From: an uncultured delta proteobacterium
Lineage (GTDB): Bacteria; Desulfobacterota; RBG-13-43-22
Direction: 5' to 3'
DNA length: 64,000 bases
Assembly (NCBI GenBank): GCA_963743305.1
Contig: CAVUPH010000033.1
Span: 1 to 64,000 of the forward strand
Shown here: positions 2,123 through 53,899 of the stretch, one piece after another
How positions within the stretch are numbered: the first letter of the stretch is position 1
How the letters are laid out: every line of letters begins with the position of its first letter
The notes under the pieces: model-generated
What the model was told of the DNA's origin: nothing
The model's database searches: none
Seen by the model: the letters and a program-made list of their open reading frames with translations, nothing else
Program-made: the position numbers and the translations under genes

Positions 2123-3313
2123 ATGGATCCATTAAGTCAAATAACCGTCCTTTCGTTGGAACAAGCTACTGTGCTGCCCTATTTGACCTTCCGGTTGGTC
2201 CAGGACGGTGTTCGGGTAATCCGTTTGGAGCATCCGGTCTTTGGTGACCCCAACCGCATGGTGGGGGATAACGTCCTCCAGGAAGAGCGGATGTTCAGTT
2301 ATTTTATGGCCATCAACGCCGGGAAAAAAGCCCTGACCTTAAACCTGGGTGTTCCGGAGGGACAGCAGATCTTAAAAGACCTGATTATGAAACTAAAGGT
2401 CGATATTTTTGCCACCAACCAACTTCCTCGAAACTATGCCAAGCTGGGCATCGATTATGGAATCCTCAAGGCCGTCAAGCCGGATTTGATTTGGTTGGGA
2501 ATCACCGGGTTCGGCCCGGACAGCAACGAGGCGGCCTACGATCCGATACTACAGGCCCGGGGCGGCCTGATGGAATTGACCGGGGAGGCGGACGGTGAAC
2601 CCCAGGTCCTGGGCATCCCGCTGCCGGATATGGGAGCCAGCGAACACGCCTACGGTCTGCTGATGAAGGCCCTGTTTCGTCGCCAGGCTACCGGTCAGGG
2701 CAGCCGGATCGACCTATCCATGTTCGAAAGCACGGTTTCCTGGCTGACCGTACCCATCACTCTGAGCCGGTCTTTCGGCAAAAAGATCACCCGGCGGGGA
2801 AACACCCATGAGTTCTTCGCCCCCGTTTCCGTCTACCCCACGGCCGACGGCTACGTTTACGTGGCCGGCGGCAACGACAAGCAGTGGAACGCCCTGACAC
2901 AGTTGCCCGGTTTTGAATCGCTGGCTCAGGAGCAATACCGGAAGAATGCCGGCCGGATCGCCGAGGTGAAAGAAGCTGAATCAGGAGATCAGCGCTATTA
3001 CCCGAAAATTCGAAAGCACCGTATTGATCAGCCTTTTTAATCAAATCGGGGTGCCTATTTCCGAGATTCATTGTATTGATCAGGTGGTTCAGGACCCCTT
3101 GGTCGTCGAAATTTGTTGAAGGCCAAGGATCCGAAGACCGGTATGAAAATTACCCTGGCGCCGCCGCCCCACATGACCGAGTACTTGAAATCCAGCGGCG
3201 GTCGGCTTTCTTTTCCACCCCGTTTCGGGGAGCATAATGAAGCGATTTACGGGCAGGTGTTGGGTCTCGGCCCGGACCAAATAAATGAAATGAAAGAAAA
3301 GGGGATCATTTAA
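2123..3313 (+). CDS. Family III (CaiB/BaiF) CoA-transferase, frameshifted
   Basis: SYFMAINAGKK, ITGFG, AYDPILQARGG, PLPD motifs; C-terminus PPRFGEHN...MKEKGII in ORF 3113-3313; GAGGAG RBS before ATG 2123. Confidence 0.85.
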
Positions 3314-49904: not shown

Positions 49905-49933
49905 TTGACAAATTATCCATAATGGAGTATAAA
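49905..49933 (+). promoter_or_regulatory. Putative sigma70 promoter (near-leaderless) of the TA operon
   Basis: TTGACA-17nt-TATAAA 6 nt before ATG 49940. Confidence 0.55.
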
Positions 49934-49939
49934 GGTAGT

Positions 49940-50173
49940 ATGAAAGTCAAGACTTCTGTCACCCTTTCCAGGGAGCTTCTGGAGATCATCGATGCCCGGG
50001 CCAGGCAATCCAAAAAGAACCGGTCTGATTTTGTTGAAACCGCGGTTCGGCTGTTTATCCGGCAATTGGTGCGGGAAGAGCAGAACGCCAGAGACCTGGA
50101 GATTATAAACCGCCGCGCTGATCATCTCAATCGGGAGGCGGCCGACATTCTGACCTACCAGACCCCGCTATGA
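49940..50173 (+). CDS. Ribbon-helix-helix (CopG) antitoxin
   Basis: [15 protein letters not shown]...[10 protein letters not shown]; overlaps the toxin ATG. Confidence 0.85.
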
Positions 50174-50496
50174 AGCGGGGCGAATTGTACCGGGTGGCCA
50201 ATCCCACAGCCAAGGACCCAAAGAAATTCCGGGTCTTTGTAGTGGTCAGTCGCCAGGTGTTGATCGACTCCCGGTTTTCAACAGTCATTTGCGCACCGAT
50301 CTATACGGCCTACGACGGCCTGGCCAGTCAGGTCCCCGTGGGACCGGAAGAGGGCCTCAAGCACGAAAGCAGCATCCACTGTGACGAACTGGTTAGCCTC
50401 TTCAAGTCGGTTTTAACCAATTTTATCGGGACGTTGGCCACGGGCCAAATGGAACAACTGGACCGGGCCCTGCGGATCGCCATGGATCTTCCCTGA
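50170..50496 (+). CDS. mazF: PemK/MazF family toxin
   Basis: MKRGELYRV...RVFVVVSRQ...VICAPI...[13 protein letters not shown]...[11 protein letters not shown]. Confidence 0.9.
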
Positions 50497-51432: not shown

Positions 51433-51803
51433 AAATAAATTGCCGCCTACCGAGAGTTTAGACGGTTCCCGATTGGCGTTCGATTAATTGACCAGCGGGA
51501 AATCGGGGTCGGATCCCAATTCCCCAGGCAATTACCTCAGAATAAGCGGCAGGACTCACTGTGCCCAGAGCGTTGCCAATAGCATCAAGCGCATAGAATT
51601 TTTGACCATCAAAAGCCAGCCCGCCTTCAAAGGGCAGGTATCCCTGATTGGGGGGGTCCTTCAACAATTTCCGTTTGAAATTTTCTCAAAAGGGCGATCC
51701 GTCAAAAACAAGACTTCAGGAAGCTATACGTACTAAAATCTGAATTTCTTATTGAAGTTAATAGGTTACATGTTTCCTAAAATCTCATAGTTTGGTTCTT
51801 TCG

Positions 51804-52697
51804 TCAAGCATTATTTGGGTGGCCAGCCGTTTGTTGCCTAATCACCTCCATGGCTTTGAAGTAGTCTCTCTGAACCTTAAGGTTTGAAATCCGGCAGTAC
51901 CGTTGTGTGGTTTTCACATGGCTATGACCCAGGAGATCTTGAATGGTGGAAAGATCGGCATCGGCATTGAGCAGTTGGGTGGCCATGGTATGGCGAAGAT
52001 GATGACAGGACACCTTGAGCTTGGCTTGGCGAGCATAAGTTTCCATGCGCCGCTGAATGCCGCGGATGGAGATGGGCTGCCCCTGACAAGGTTTCTTTTC
52101 CGCCAGAAAGATCTTTCTGGCCTTGGATGGCGGCCTCACCGTCAGATAGGCGGCCAGGGCCTGAAGGGCATCATGGCTCATATAGACGACCCGATCTTTT
52201 CCACCCTTACCGTCTTCCACCAGGATAGTCCTGCGTTTGACGTCTATGACCCCGATCGTTAGCTGGGCGACTTCTTCCACCCGTAGCCCGCAACGGAGCA
52301 TGAGCATGAACATGGCCCGGTCACGGACGCCCTTGATGGCCTTAAAAAAGGTCTCCACCTGATCATCTCTCAGGTGTCGGGGAAGGGGCTGGGACATCTT
52401 CTGGAGATGAGTCTTCTTGATGGGGTTGGTGATAATCACCCCTTCCTCATCCCGCAGGTAATGGTAGAACTGGCGAATACCGTTCAAGTGGCAGTTGACC
52501 GTCTTGGGCGCCAGCCTCTTCCTCATGAGATGCTCGATGTAGCGCGACACGGTTACGTGGGTTACGGCCTCCACCGGCACATCCAGCCAGATGATAAAGT
52601 GTTTAATGAGGTTCAGATAGTTCTTCACGGCATGGGGCGAACAGTTCCGCCGCTTTAAAAATCTCTGCCAGTTCAGGATCGCATCGGTCATCGCCAT
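51804..52697 (-). CDS. Tyrosine recombinase/integrase (XerC/D-like) 2
   Basis: CGLRVEE, GKGGKDR, HHLRH, LLGH, TTQRY. Confidence 0.95.
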   Translation of the reverse strand: MAMTDAILNWQRFLKRRNCSPHAVKNYLNLIKHFIIWLDVPVEAVTHVTVSRYIEHLMRKRLAPKTVNCHLNGIRQFYHYLRDEEGVIITNPIKKTHLQKMSQPLPRHLRDDQVETFFKAIKGVRDRAMFMLMLRCGLRVEEVAQLTIGVIDVKRRTILVEDGKGGKDRVVYMSHDALQALAAYLTVRPPSKARKIFLAEKKPCQGQPISIRGIQRRMETYARQAKLKVSCHHLRHTMATQLLNADADLSTIQDLLGHSHVKTTQRYCRISNLKVQRDYFKAMEVIRQQTAGHPNNA

Positions 52698-53742
52698 TAC
52701 TGTCCCTCCTCTCTATTTTCGACATGGCTCTAAAATACTCAGCCTCCCGGGTCTTATCAGTCAGCCGGGCATACCGCCGGGTCTCCTCAATGCTCCGGTG
52801 CCCCAACAAAACCTGGAGACACTCCAGACGCATGCCGGCGTTGAGAAACTCCGTAGCAAAGGTGTGGCGAAGGGTATGCAGGGAATATCCCTTGTCGGCC
52901 AATCCCGCCTTCACCAGATAGCGCATAAAAATGGTCCGGGCGGTGCTGTAGGACATGGTCTCTGTCCGGGTATAGATCAGGTACTCCTCACTGGGATTCC
53001 TCTTCTTCAACCACCCCCGCAGAGCCAGGACCGCATCGTCGCTGAGATAGACCACCCTCCCCAGGCGGTTCTTCTCCCCTTCGTAAATCTCTATCCTCCG
53101 CTCCTTGAGATGGACGTCGGCCATCTTGGTATTAAGCAGTTCACCGATCCGCAGGCCCGTCCTCAACAAGACCAGGACCATGGCCCGGTCACGAATATCT
53201 TCAATGACCGAAAGCAGCTTCTGGAGATCGTCAGGATCCATGGCCCGCGGCAGCCGCTCCGGTAACTGCAACCGTATCCTCCTGCTGAATAGTTCCGCGG
53301 AAACCATCCCTTCTTCTAACAGGTAACGGAGAAAGGCTTGCACACTCACCAGCCTGGTCCTGATCGTTGTAATCTTAATCCCCCGGTCCTGCTCCTGCTC
53401 AATGAACGCCTCCACATCCCTTCGGGTAATGGCTTCAAGGGATGCTTTGCCGCTCTCTCGTATCAGGCCAAGAAAAAGAATGATCGCCCCAAAACGACTG
53501 TACAAGGTCCTCGGTCTGCGGTTGCCATGAGTCAGGTGACGAAGATAGGCTTCCACCTGATCCTTCCCCGGAAGGTCCATCCGGACCAGCCGTTTTAAAA
53601 TCTGGCCAAGCGCTTCTAAACAGTCTTTAGAATTTATTTTAAATCGTAATCGCGTTTGATAATAATGGGGAGCGTTACCGGCGGGAATCTTAAAATCAGA
53701 AGATTTACTCGTCTGCTGTAGATCACTATGTCCGTTCATCAT
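52603..53742 (-). CDS. Tyrosine recombinase/integrase (XerC/D-like) 1
   Basis: TGLRIGE, EKNRLGR, HTLRH, LLGH, TRRY; AAGGAG RBS. Confidence 0.95.
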   Translation of the reverse strand: MMNGHSDLQQTSKSSDFKIPAGNAPHYYQTRLRFKINSKDCLEALGQILKRLVRMDLPGKDQVEAYLRHLTHGNRRPRTLYSRFGAIILFLGLIRESGKASLEAITRRDVEAFIEQEQDRGIKITTIRTRLVSVQAFLRYLLEEGMVSAELFSRRIRLQLPERLPRAMDPDDLQKLLSVIEDIRDRAMVLVLLRTGLRIGELLNTKMADVHLKERRIEIYEGEKNRLGRVVYLSDDAVLALRGWLKKRNPSEEYLIYTRTETMSYSTARTIFMRYLVKAGLADKGYSLHTLRHTFATEFLNAGMRLECLQVLLGHRSIEETRRYARLTDKTREAEYFRAMSKIERRDSNGDDRCDPELAEIFKAAELFAPCREELSEPH

Positions 53743-53899
53743 CTCTGTCTCCTTTTCTTAAATCAATAAGAAAATCAGACAGATGATGACTAATAAACTC
53801 TTATCTGTCAAACATCAGCTTGGTACGTATAGCAGGAAGCAGTCTTTTCCGAAAGAACAAATCTCCTTCCCTTCTAGCGCGTATAGATAGGAATAACAG

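Follow-up and report, generated by a model that had tools for sequence, protein, structure and literature searches.

A 2.1-kb element of two tyrosine-recombinase genes with inverted arms and duplicated 7-bp cores in an uncultured delta proteobacterium

Can a pair of tyrosine recombinases, with no further gene, make up a mobile element the size of an insertion sequence (IS)? The question is raised by a locus in a 64,000-nucleotide stretch of DNA (hereafter the window, meaning the whole stretch analyzed: positions 1 to 64,000, forward strand, of contig CAVUPH010000033.1, assembly GCA_963743305.1) from an uncultured delta proteobacterium of the Desulfobacterota. Here a 2109-bp unit (51724-53832, minus strand) consists of two overlapping tyrosine-recombinase genes, A and B, and about 200 bp of ends. 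A preliminary description made from the letters of the window had read it as a minimal mobile element, an IS-sized, XerCD-like heteromeric excision/integration system. That the element is real, discrete and mobile, and has two genes only, is well supported by the comparisons below; we infer with high confidence that it is an autonomous element of IS size, moved by conservative site-specific recombination with its own two paralogous recombinases. Throughout, gene sense is the minus strand of the window, G000 is the window's own genome, and G002 is a genome of the same genus.

On the plus strand the ends of the unit read ...AAGACTT CAGGAAG CTATACGTACTAA... and ...TTGGTACGTATAG CAGGAAG CAGTCTT...; the two 13-bp terminal arms are inverted with one mismatch, as the preliminary description had it. 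A direct repeat is present at both junctions and measures 7 bp (CAGGAAG), not 8. The C that forms the eighth base at the left junction is at the same time the first base of the left 13-bp arm, and it is absent from a solo end in contig C16 of G000, which ends in ...TATAGCAGGAAG followed by T; because this solo end lacks the eighth base, and because the repeat of the relatives is also 7 bp long, the duplicated core is 7 bp. A second inverted motif that had been noted inside the arms was recovered by a repeat search as a 17-nucleotide (nt) pair, matching at 16 positions (94% complementary).

A scan of one genome per species for loci encoding a relative of A returned 41 related loci, in metagenome-assembled genomes labelled delta proteobacterium, Syntrophales, Smithellaceae and the like, and allowed cores and target sites to be compared from copy to copy. 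Both ends could be located in 35 units, of which 29 have enough flank to score the repeat. Most of the 35 units are 2109-2124 bp long. Their consensus ends are CTATACGTA[AC][CT]AA ... T[AT]CGTATAG, and the arms, the subterminal repeats and the spacing of about 2.1 kb recur in these units of other genomes down to 47% protein identity, a recurrence that is evidently more than chance. A perfect 7-bp direct repeat borders 26/29 units, whose flanks are unlike from copy to copy. The absence of a third gene or cargo, claimed at the outset for the window's unit alone, proves general: 31/35 units hold exactly two intact, overlapping genes, and no conserved third open reading frame (ORF) of at least 150 amino acids (aa) in sense orientation was found across the related units. 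The four exceptions are one interrupted copy (L006), two with frameshifts and one whose end is doubtful. In L006 (4911-10589) the copy is split by a 3.5-kb insertion carrying an rve/Mu-type transposase (418 aa) and an AAA ATPase (267 aa); this insertion is a nested transposon, not cargo.

The window's own site is empty in G002, where it reads GGACTA-CAGGAAG-CAGTCTC with one core copy and adjoins the same peptidase gene as in the window (91% identical); G002 has three copies of the element elsewhere. In G003, which has no copy, the site reads GGACTA-CAGGAAG-TAGTCC. The converse case is the L005 site of G002, which is unoccupied in G000, with the core CTTCCAG. These empty sites in congeners confirm an insertion polymorphism, and they match, with a single core copy, the junction that had been predicted for the empty site. 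The palindrome also predicted there is real at the window's site, as the G002 and G003 sequences demonstrate, but it is no general rule across 26 sites.

Tyrosine recombinases are usually located at the ends of larger integrative elements, and on that ground the pair could belong to a larger island, phage or integrative and conjugative element as its integration module, the 2.1-kb unit being only one end of it. However, both arms and both cores lie 2109 bp apart, most of the 35 units keep a spacing of 2109-2124 bp with unrelated flanks on both sides, and in G002 the flanking peptidase gene adjoins an uninterrupted site; an island edge is therefore extremely improbable. In each of the three respects in which the preliminary description was open to contradiction the relatives agree with it, since two-gene units are standard, the ends are conserved and the empty site matches, and its interpretation is supported: the unit behaves as an autonomous two-recombinase element of IS size.

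Five loci were found in the CAXXVL assembly and three in each of two others. Because the CAXXVL copies stand at different sites and are near-identical or identical in protein sequence, transposition there is recent. The distribution of the element is patchy: a close relative of A is found in 8/21 genomes of the window's order (E<=1e-60), and in 16/401 evenly sampled genomes of the phylum representing 12/254 genera (E<=1e-70), G000 counted in each case. A search of a plasmid collection found no relative above 37% identity. Assembled Logan contigs from 4 public runs break at 51712 and at 53839/53844, and one goes on after 53844 into a different flank, which is the behavior of a repeated element in short-read assemblies. 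Many metagenome contigs that carry relatives of A are about 2.0-2.4 kb long, about the length of the element.

G000 itself has one intact copy, that of the window. Two decayed fragments accompany it: a solo 5' end of 152 bp, 97% identical, that includes the first 17 codons of A (G000:C16:9593-9744; L002 1501-1652), and a 3' arm of about 25 nt that stands alone beside a CTTCCTG (G000:C19:~3072-3100). An nhmmer match had raised the latter as a candidate second element in contig C19, but tblastn finds no recombinase there, and it was rejected in favor of the solo arm alone. On another contig, L061 (1828-1925), two tandem 42-bp mini-units have nothing but a 5'-type arm joined to a 3'-type arm by about 20 nt, and are separated and then followed by CCAAGTG; the contig carries no recombinase gene, and the mini-units may be non-autonomous derivatives.

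Both proteins match Pfam Phage_integrase (A 1.8e-37, B 6.7e-40), with N-terminal SAM-like core-binding domains, and are paralogues of 29% identity. In NCBIfam the best match of A is XerA (157 bits, cut-off 220) and that of B is XerC (204 bits, cut-off 335); the XerC and XerD models (TIGR02224 and TIGR02225, cut-offs 335.15 and 329.6) give 141.8 and 128.1 bits for A and 204.4 and 175.7 bits for B. The closest solved structures for B are archaeal XerA-type proteins, and public records label the relatives "integrase/recombinase XerD" or "tyrosine-type recombinase/integrase". The earlier wording "XerCD-like" thus holds in that both proteins score best on Xer models, but not in the sense of membership, the scores being below the NCBIfam cut-offs; its companion "heteromeric" stays a proposal.

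With Xer proteins as best NCBIfam and PDB matches, and "integrase/recombinase XerD" as the public annotation of relatives, the pair might be a host dimer-resolution system of XerC/XerD type with a dif-like junction, and no mobile element at all. Yet the XerC/XerD scores are far under the cut-offs, the unit is multi-copy, variably placed and missing from the same site in congeners, and G000 has a separate, stronger Xer-like gene in contig C41. We attach practically no weight to a host system.

The initial reading of two co-oriented, overlapping recombinases with full catalytic sets was borne out. The two ORFs lie on the minus strand (53742..52603 and 52697..51804) and overlap by 95 nt, and the catalytic residues of A (R198, K224, H289, R292, H315, Y324) and of B (R139, K164/K167, H232, R235, H258, Y267) are invariant in 32 sequences of each protein. 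Values of dN/dS, the ratio of nonsynonymous to synonymous substitution rates, are 0.11-0.24 for A and 0.07-0.17 for B in 8/8 pairs (gene overlap excluded), indicating purifying selection on both genes. Identities to the window copies co-vary between A and B (r=0.98, among related copies that are not independent), and B is more conserved than A. From these sequence comparisons, both recombinases look functional and look to act as a pair.

Most units have the core CTTCCTG (gene sense). CAAATAC is found in a clade of three, CACCTAC in another clade of three, and CTGCTAT in one distant member; the two clades of three branch from among CTTCCTG elements, with arms that are essentially unchanged. Whichever core it has, each unit is flanked on both sides by its own, as conservative site-specific recombination across a 7-bp overlap would predict. 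Beyond the core, the flanks of 26 sites share T(-2) in 23/26, A(-4) in 14/26, W(+1) in 23/26, A(+2) in 25/26, R(+3) in 22/26 and T(+4) in 21/26. The resulting target half-sites, A-Y-T-N and W-A-R-T, are mutually symmetric and unlike the inner arm bases of the element, ATAG and CTAT, so that each integrated junction pairs an element-type with a target-type half-site. That every junction is mixed in this way is the main reason to propose that the two proteins differ in DNA specificity, as XerC and XerD do. A requirement that the target be a hairpin was rejected: flank complementarity at offsets 1-6 amounts to 66/156 against a permuted-partner mean of 67.4 (26 sites), and the one feature common to the sites in general is the position consensus T(-2)/A(+2) and A(-4)/T(+4).

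A second motif, unexpected and, like the half-site difference, no part of the preliminary description, marks the target at a distance. Its consensus, TTCAAACGNAAAT, lies about 38 nt past the core in the 3'-side flank of 16/22 occupied CTTCCTG sites, a count made in the same flanks from which the motif was derived and hence partly circular; it follows 26/1567 of all CTTCCTG in G000 and occurs in 1/22 left flanks. The empty sites of G002 and G003 carry the motif too, as do about 9 unoccupied G000 sites. A tail of about 65 nt carried by the element itself was considered and rejected, as tails differ greatly between near-identical elements of one genome, and the tail is also found where no element is inserted; by the same observations the distal motif belongs to the target. 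It bears a loose likeness to the element's own subterminal repeat (TCAA-N3-GAAA). Between L005 (7019-7116) and the window copy (51625-51723) the right flanks are 87% identical over their first 97 nt, while the left flanks come from different loci; this shared tail could reflect flank exchange between copies by recombination, or two related target modules.

Core and distal motif fall within a repeated intergenic module of about 60-100 nt, in which a short stem around CTTCCTG is followed by about 35 variable nt and then AGAGTTCAAACGNAAATCGTT. G000 has about 12 copies, among them C13:259717, C14:28281, C7:198374, C19:79964, C13:235565, C21:60208, C15:118015, C13:228259 and C37:31143 (L081-L088), and the module at the element's own site spans 51643-51723 of the window. 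At 10/12 listed G000 sites an ORF of at least 100 aa on the same strand starts 125-706 nt downstream; the remaining two are the window's own occupied site and one at a contig end. About 125 nt downstream of one site is a c-di-AMP (ydaO) riboswitch (G000:C13:228001-228134; L087 2-135, minus strand; 78.8 bits, gathering score 38). Because of these downstream ORFs and the riboswitch, the module seems to sit upstream of promoters. An Rfam search of the window ends, the target and 12 unoccupied sites returned no family for the module, the riboswitch being the sole real match. Insertions favor an intergenic module with the motif 38 nt past the core.

These observations can be joined in one mechanism. 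The 7-bp sequence would be the crossover (overlap) region; recombination of attL with attR would excise a circle with an arm-core-arm junction (13-7-13, loxP-like), and this circle would integrate where the same 7 bp adjoins suitable short half-sites. Since the core would travel with the element, a changed core would retarget a whole lineage, and the CAAATAC and CACCTAC clades look like retargeting events of this kind. Of the element-type (..TATAG / CTATA..) and target-type half-sites, A and B would each take one kind, much as XerC and XerD share dif. The subterminal repeats of 17 bp probably serve as accessory or regulatory binding sites, and the one at the 5' end overlaps the translation start region of gene A. 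Integration would favor the intergenic module, usually upstream of a promoter, that is marked by the second motif.

The division of labor between A and B could be otherwise, with one recombinase doing all the chemistry at both kinds of half-site and the other serving to regulate it or to set directionality. Given that the terminal arms have nearly the same sequence, a homodimer could occupy the circle junction; B is the better conserved protein, and the position of the 5' subterminal repeat over the start region of A suggests autoregulation. Invariance of both catalytic hexads in 32 sequences would be unexpected for a purely regulatory paralogue, however, and target and element half-sites differ at their best-conserved positions, which calls for two specificities. 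We regard a single active enzyme as rather unlikely. Structure prediction for a complex of A (residues 36-350) with B gave 0.31 against a mark of 0.32 and is evidence neither way.

Several results weigh against an autonomous element moved by two cooperating recombinases, or against parts of that interpretation. The near-identical inverted arms could both be bound by one protein, which makes the proposed role of the second putative. In the AlphaFold2 model of A no lambda-Int-like arm-binding N-domain was seen, though residues 1-35 are of low confidence and the alignment is shallow. Three of the 29 scored units have no perfect 7-bp repeat, and the count of the distal motif has the circularity noted above. 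Four Logan runs, one of them a ribonucleic acid (RNA) library, showed no joint, circle junction or skipped form; in the RNA library gene cover is indistinguishable from DNA, and the uncovered part of the flank is uninformative. A scan of metagenome contigs for the pattern arm-N7-arm gave 24 matches, only 4/24 of which carry genes A and B, and the pattern had 0 matches in viral contigs. Finally, the one contig that reads through a junction, L076, is a single instance from a 44%-identical relative and may represent a tandem or an assembly path. The remaining 20/24 arm-N7-arm matches were rejected as element junctions, being unrelated AT-rich palindromes or sites without the genes.

L076 itself (2246 bp) runs from flank through core and the whole element to a further core, after which come 38 nt from the opposite end of the element. 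Since it reads through the junction, reads across an arm-core-arm junction existed in that sample, and their source could be a circle or a head-to-tail tandem. Two 5-kb contigs without recombinase genes, L059 (1086-1124) and L064 (1907-1945), contain an unoccupied perfect palindrome, ATTATGTTACGTATAG-CACCTGC-CTATACGTAACATAAT (16-7-16), which resembles a circle junction or dif-like site. In two distant relatives, L063 (~2011-2035) and L072 (~250-274), a solo arm of the opposite type borders the element on the far side of the core, an arrangement that integration into an arm-core-arm site, or beside a decayed copy, could have produced.

The element can be set beside several described systems. 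Recombinase-in-trio (RIT) elements, found mostly in alpha- and beta-proteobacteria, have three consecutive recombinase genes, RitA, RitB and RitC (315-410 aa), and terminal repeats of 34 bp (PMC10214605); RitA is described with a pair of core-binding domains and RitC with an additional C-terminal helix (PMC8138268). Like the present element they are IS-like and multi-copy, with recombinase genes only, short overlaps and terminal inverted repeats, and their mobility has been inferred from distribution (PMC3414803, PMC10214605). They differ in having three recombinases and 34-bp repeats where the element has two and 13-bp arms; the element is also set apart by a defined 7-bp duplicated core, natural empty sites and other hosts. 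The AlphaFold2 model of A (predicted local distance difference test 75, residues 1-35 unstructured, shallow alignment) has one SAM-like core-binding domain after a single helix, and a low-confidence C-terminal helix, RitA and RitC being compared by description only.

Tn554 combines TnpA with a large TnpB (~630 aa) and TnpC; the 6 bp flanking it are carried from the donor, and there is no target duplication (Murphy & Lofdahl 1984, as cited). SE and GInt elements are described with four core genes, intA-tfp-intB-srap or ginA to ginD. Tn554, SE and GInt resemble the element in their two adjacent catalytic tyrosine recombinases, short imperfect inverted ends, crossover-type sequence of 6-7 bp and site preference. 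They differ in pairing one ordinary with one large recombinase, in one or two further essential proteins (TnpC/Srap, Tfp) and in cargo, and SEs regenerate no empty site, whereas natural empty sites of the element are seen in congeners; its recombinases are both of ordinary size (379 and 297 aa), with no other gene or cargo and with perfect repeats. The bipartite module (BIM) pairs one tyrosine recombinase with a conserved non-recombinase SMC-domain protein (PMC3414803), and in that differs from the element, both of whose proteins belong to the Phage_integrase family. The element lacks the three genes and 34-bp repeats of RIT, and the defining features tested for Tn554, SE, GInt and BIM.

RIT and Tn554 being known elements built on several tyrosine recombinases, the unit might be a degenerate member of either type that has lost one gene and is no longer self-mobile. 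A is 36% identical over 216 residues to the ordinary-sized member of a 409- plus 695-aa pair on an alphaproteobacterial plasmid, a similarity that would fit such an origin. Conservation of the two-gene state (31/35 intact across 47-100% identity), purifying selection on both genes and recent transposition in CAXXVL are not what decay would leave; there is no recombinase of >600 aa and no TnpC-sized ORF, and the perfect 7-bp repeats contrast with Tn554, which makes no target duplication. Degeneration from a larger element is quite improbable. The plasmid pair just mentioned (Sulfitobacter plasmid NZ_CP025813.1; L080 2931-6244) consists of adjacent tyrosine recombinases with a 4-nt overlap, annotated only as "tyrosine-type recombinase/integrase"; it looks like a Tn554-like "ordinary plus large" arrangement, only distantly related to the element.

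With XerC/XerD at dif the element shares two paralogous recombinases and, on the reading proposed here, two different half-sites around a short center, but XerC/XerD is a single-copy host function at one dif site, while the element has its own mobile pair at up to 5 loci per assembly. IMEX at dif borrow the host Xer proteins, whereas the element encodes its own recombinases. The integron integrase differs in that A and B score 71 and 109.6 bits on its model, TIGR02249, under the cut-off of 265, and no cassette array surrounds the unit. The loxP site is organized as 13-8-13, and the junction predicted for the element is similarly two 13-bp inverted arms around an asymmetric 7-bp spacer; Cre, however, is a single recombinase acting on identical sites, where the element has two proteins and target half-sites unlike its own. 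IS1397 inserts into REP/BIME units and IS110-family elements into REP-like sequences, and the element likewise prefers a repeated intergenic module, but those elements use DDE or DEDD transposases, as against tyrosine recombinases and a 7-bp core match to the target. All operational features of an IS are present (small size, mobility genes only, terminal inverted repeats, direct repeats, multiple copies); to our knowledge, tyrosine-recombinase chemistry does not occur among the listed IS families.

A 2023 survey recognizes five groups of tyrosine-recombinase-encoding prokaryotic transposons in its Table 1, none of them a two-gene element (PMC10214605). A full-text literature search, with ISfinder and the papers' supplements outside its scope, found no description of such an element. 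Together with the family comparisons, this agrees with the earlier statement that the unit could not be assigned to a described family.

The features of the unit are collected in Table 1. In the predicted hairpin at the start of gene A, the -10 region and the 5' subterminal repeat pair with the ribosome-binding site and ATG of gene A; its consensus fold has 18 pairs, with compensatory change in only 3, and it remains a potential structure, conserved but not proven. Such a hairpin might keep transcripts that read in from outside silent, as is the case for some IS elements. The strings TTGACAG and GTCATCATCT of the promoter region are kept in relatives. Outside the unit, two small ORFs of 83 and 108 aa (window 49922-50496) look like a toxin-antitoxin pair by their size, 4-nt overlap and sequence.

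Table 1. Features of the two-recombinase unit and its target site, in window coordinates
Feature	Coordinates	Strand	Remarks
Distal target motif	51667..51679	-	TTCAAACGGAAAT in gene sense; 38 nt past core; part of target
Core copy 1	51717..51723		CAGGAAG (gene sense CTTCCTG); junction at element 3' end, attR-like
3' terminal arm	51724..51736		13 bp, CTATACGTACTAA on + strand; relatives keep ..T[AT]CGTATAG
Subterminal 17-bp repeat, 3' copy	51739..51755		TCAATAAGAAATTCAGA in gene sense; family-wide conservation
Recombinase B gene	51804..52697	-	297 aa, Xer-like; own GGAGGG ribosome-binding site within gene A 3' end
Recombinase A gene	52603..53742	-	379 aa; ~60 extra N-terminal residues, variable C-terminal tail
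Predicted hairpin	53744..53783	-	17-nt arms, 88% complementary
Subterminal 17-bp repeat, 5' copy	53763..53779		Inverted partner of 51739-51755
Sigma-70-like promoter	53783..53811	-	TTGACA-17-CATCAT; 10/12 matches; just inside 5' arm
5' terminal arm	53820..53832		13 bp, TTGGTACGTATAG on + strand; relatives keep CTATACGTA[AC][CT]AA
Core copy 2	53833..53839		CAGGAAG; junction at element 5' end, attL-like

We place the element among the recombinase-only transposable elements and call its two-gene design one for which no description was found in print. The known elements of this kind are either trios (RIT) or pairs that depend on additional proteins (Tn554, SE, GInt), and for most of them ends, targets and empty sites are poorly defined. 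The present family is a smaller and cleaner case, with two recombinases of ordinary size, exact ends, a duplicated 7-bp crossover and natural empty sites; a single protein family includes several core "addresses", and dozens of independent insertions make the target rule readable. Annotation is affected as well, in that public pipelines call these genes "XerD" or "tyrosine-type recombinase/integrase". At 2.1 kb, the element opens to test the question of why more than one recombinase is needed, along with those of how a site-specific recombinase becomes a transposase with relaxed target choice and how a target is switched by a change of core. A wider proposal, put forward tentatively and with less than even confidence, is that of a "recombinase-in-duo" family: the smallest self-sufficient tyrosine-recombinase transposon, in which two paralogues would split element and target half-sites, the 7-bp core would be a heritable and switchable address, and the motif at 38 nt would guide integration into a promoter-upstream module. 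If true, it would amount to a compact integrase system of two proteins, with a target open to re-programming through a 7-bp change.

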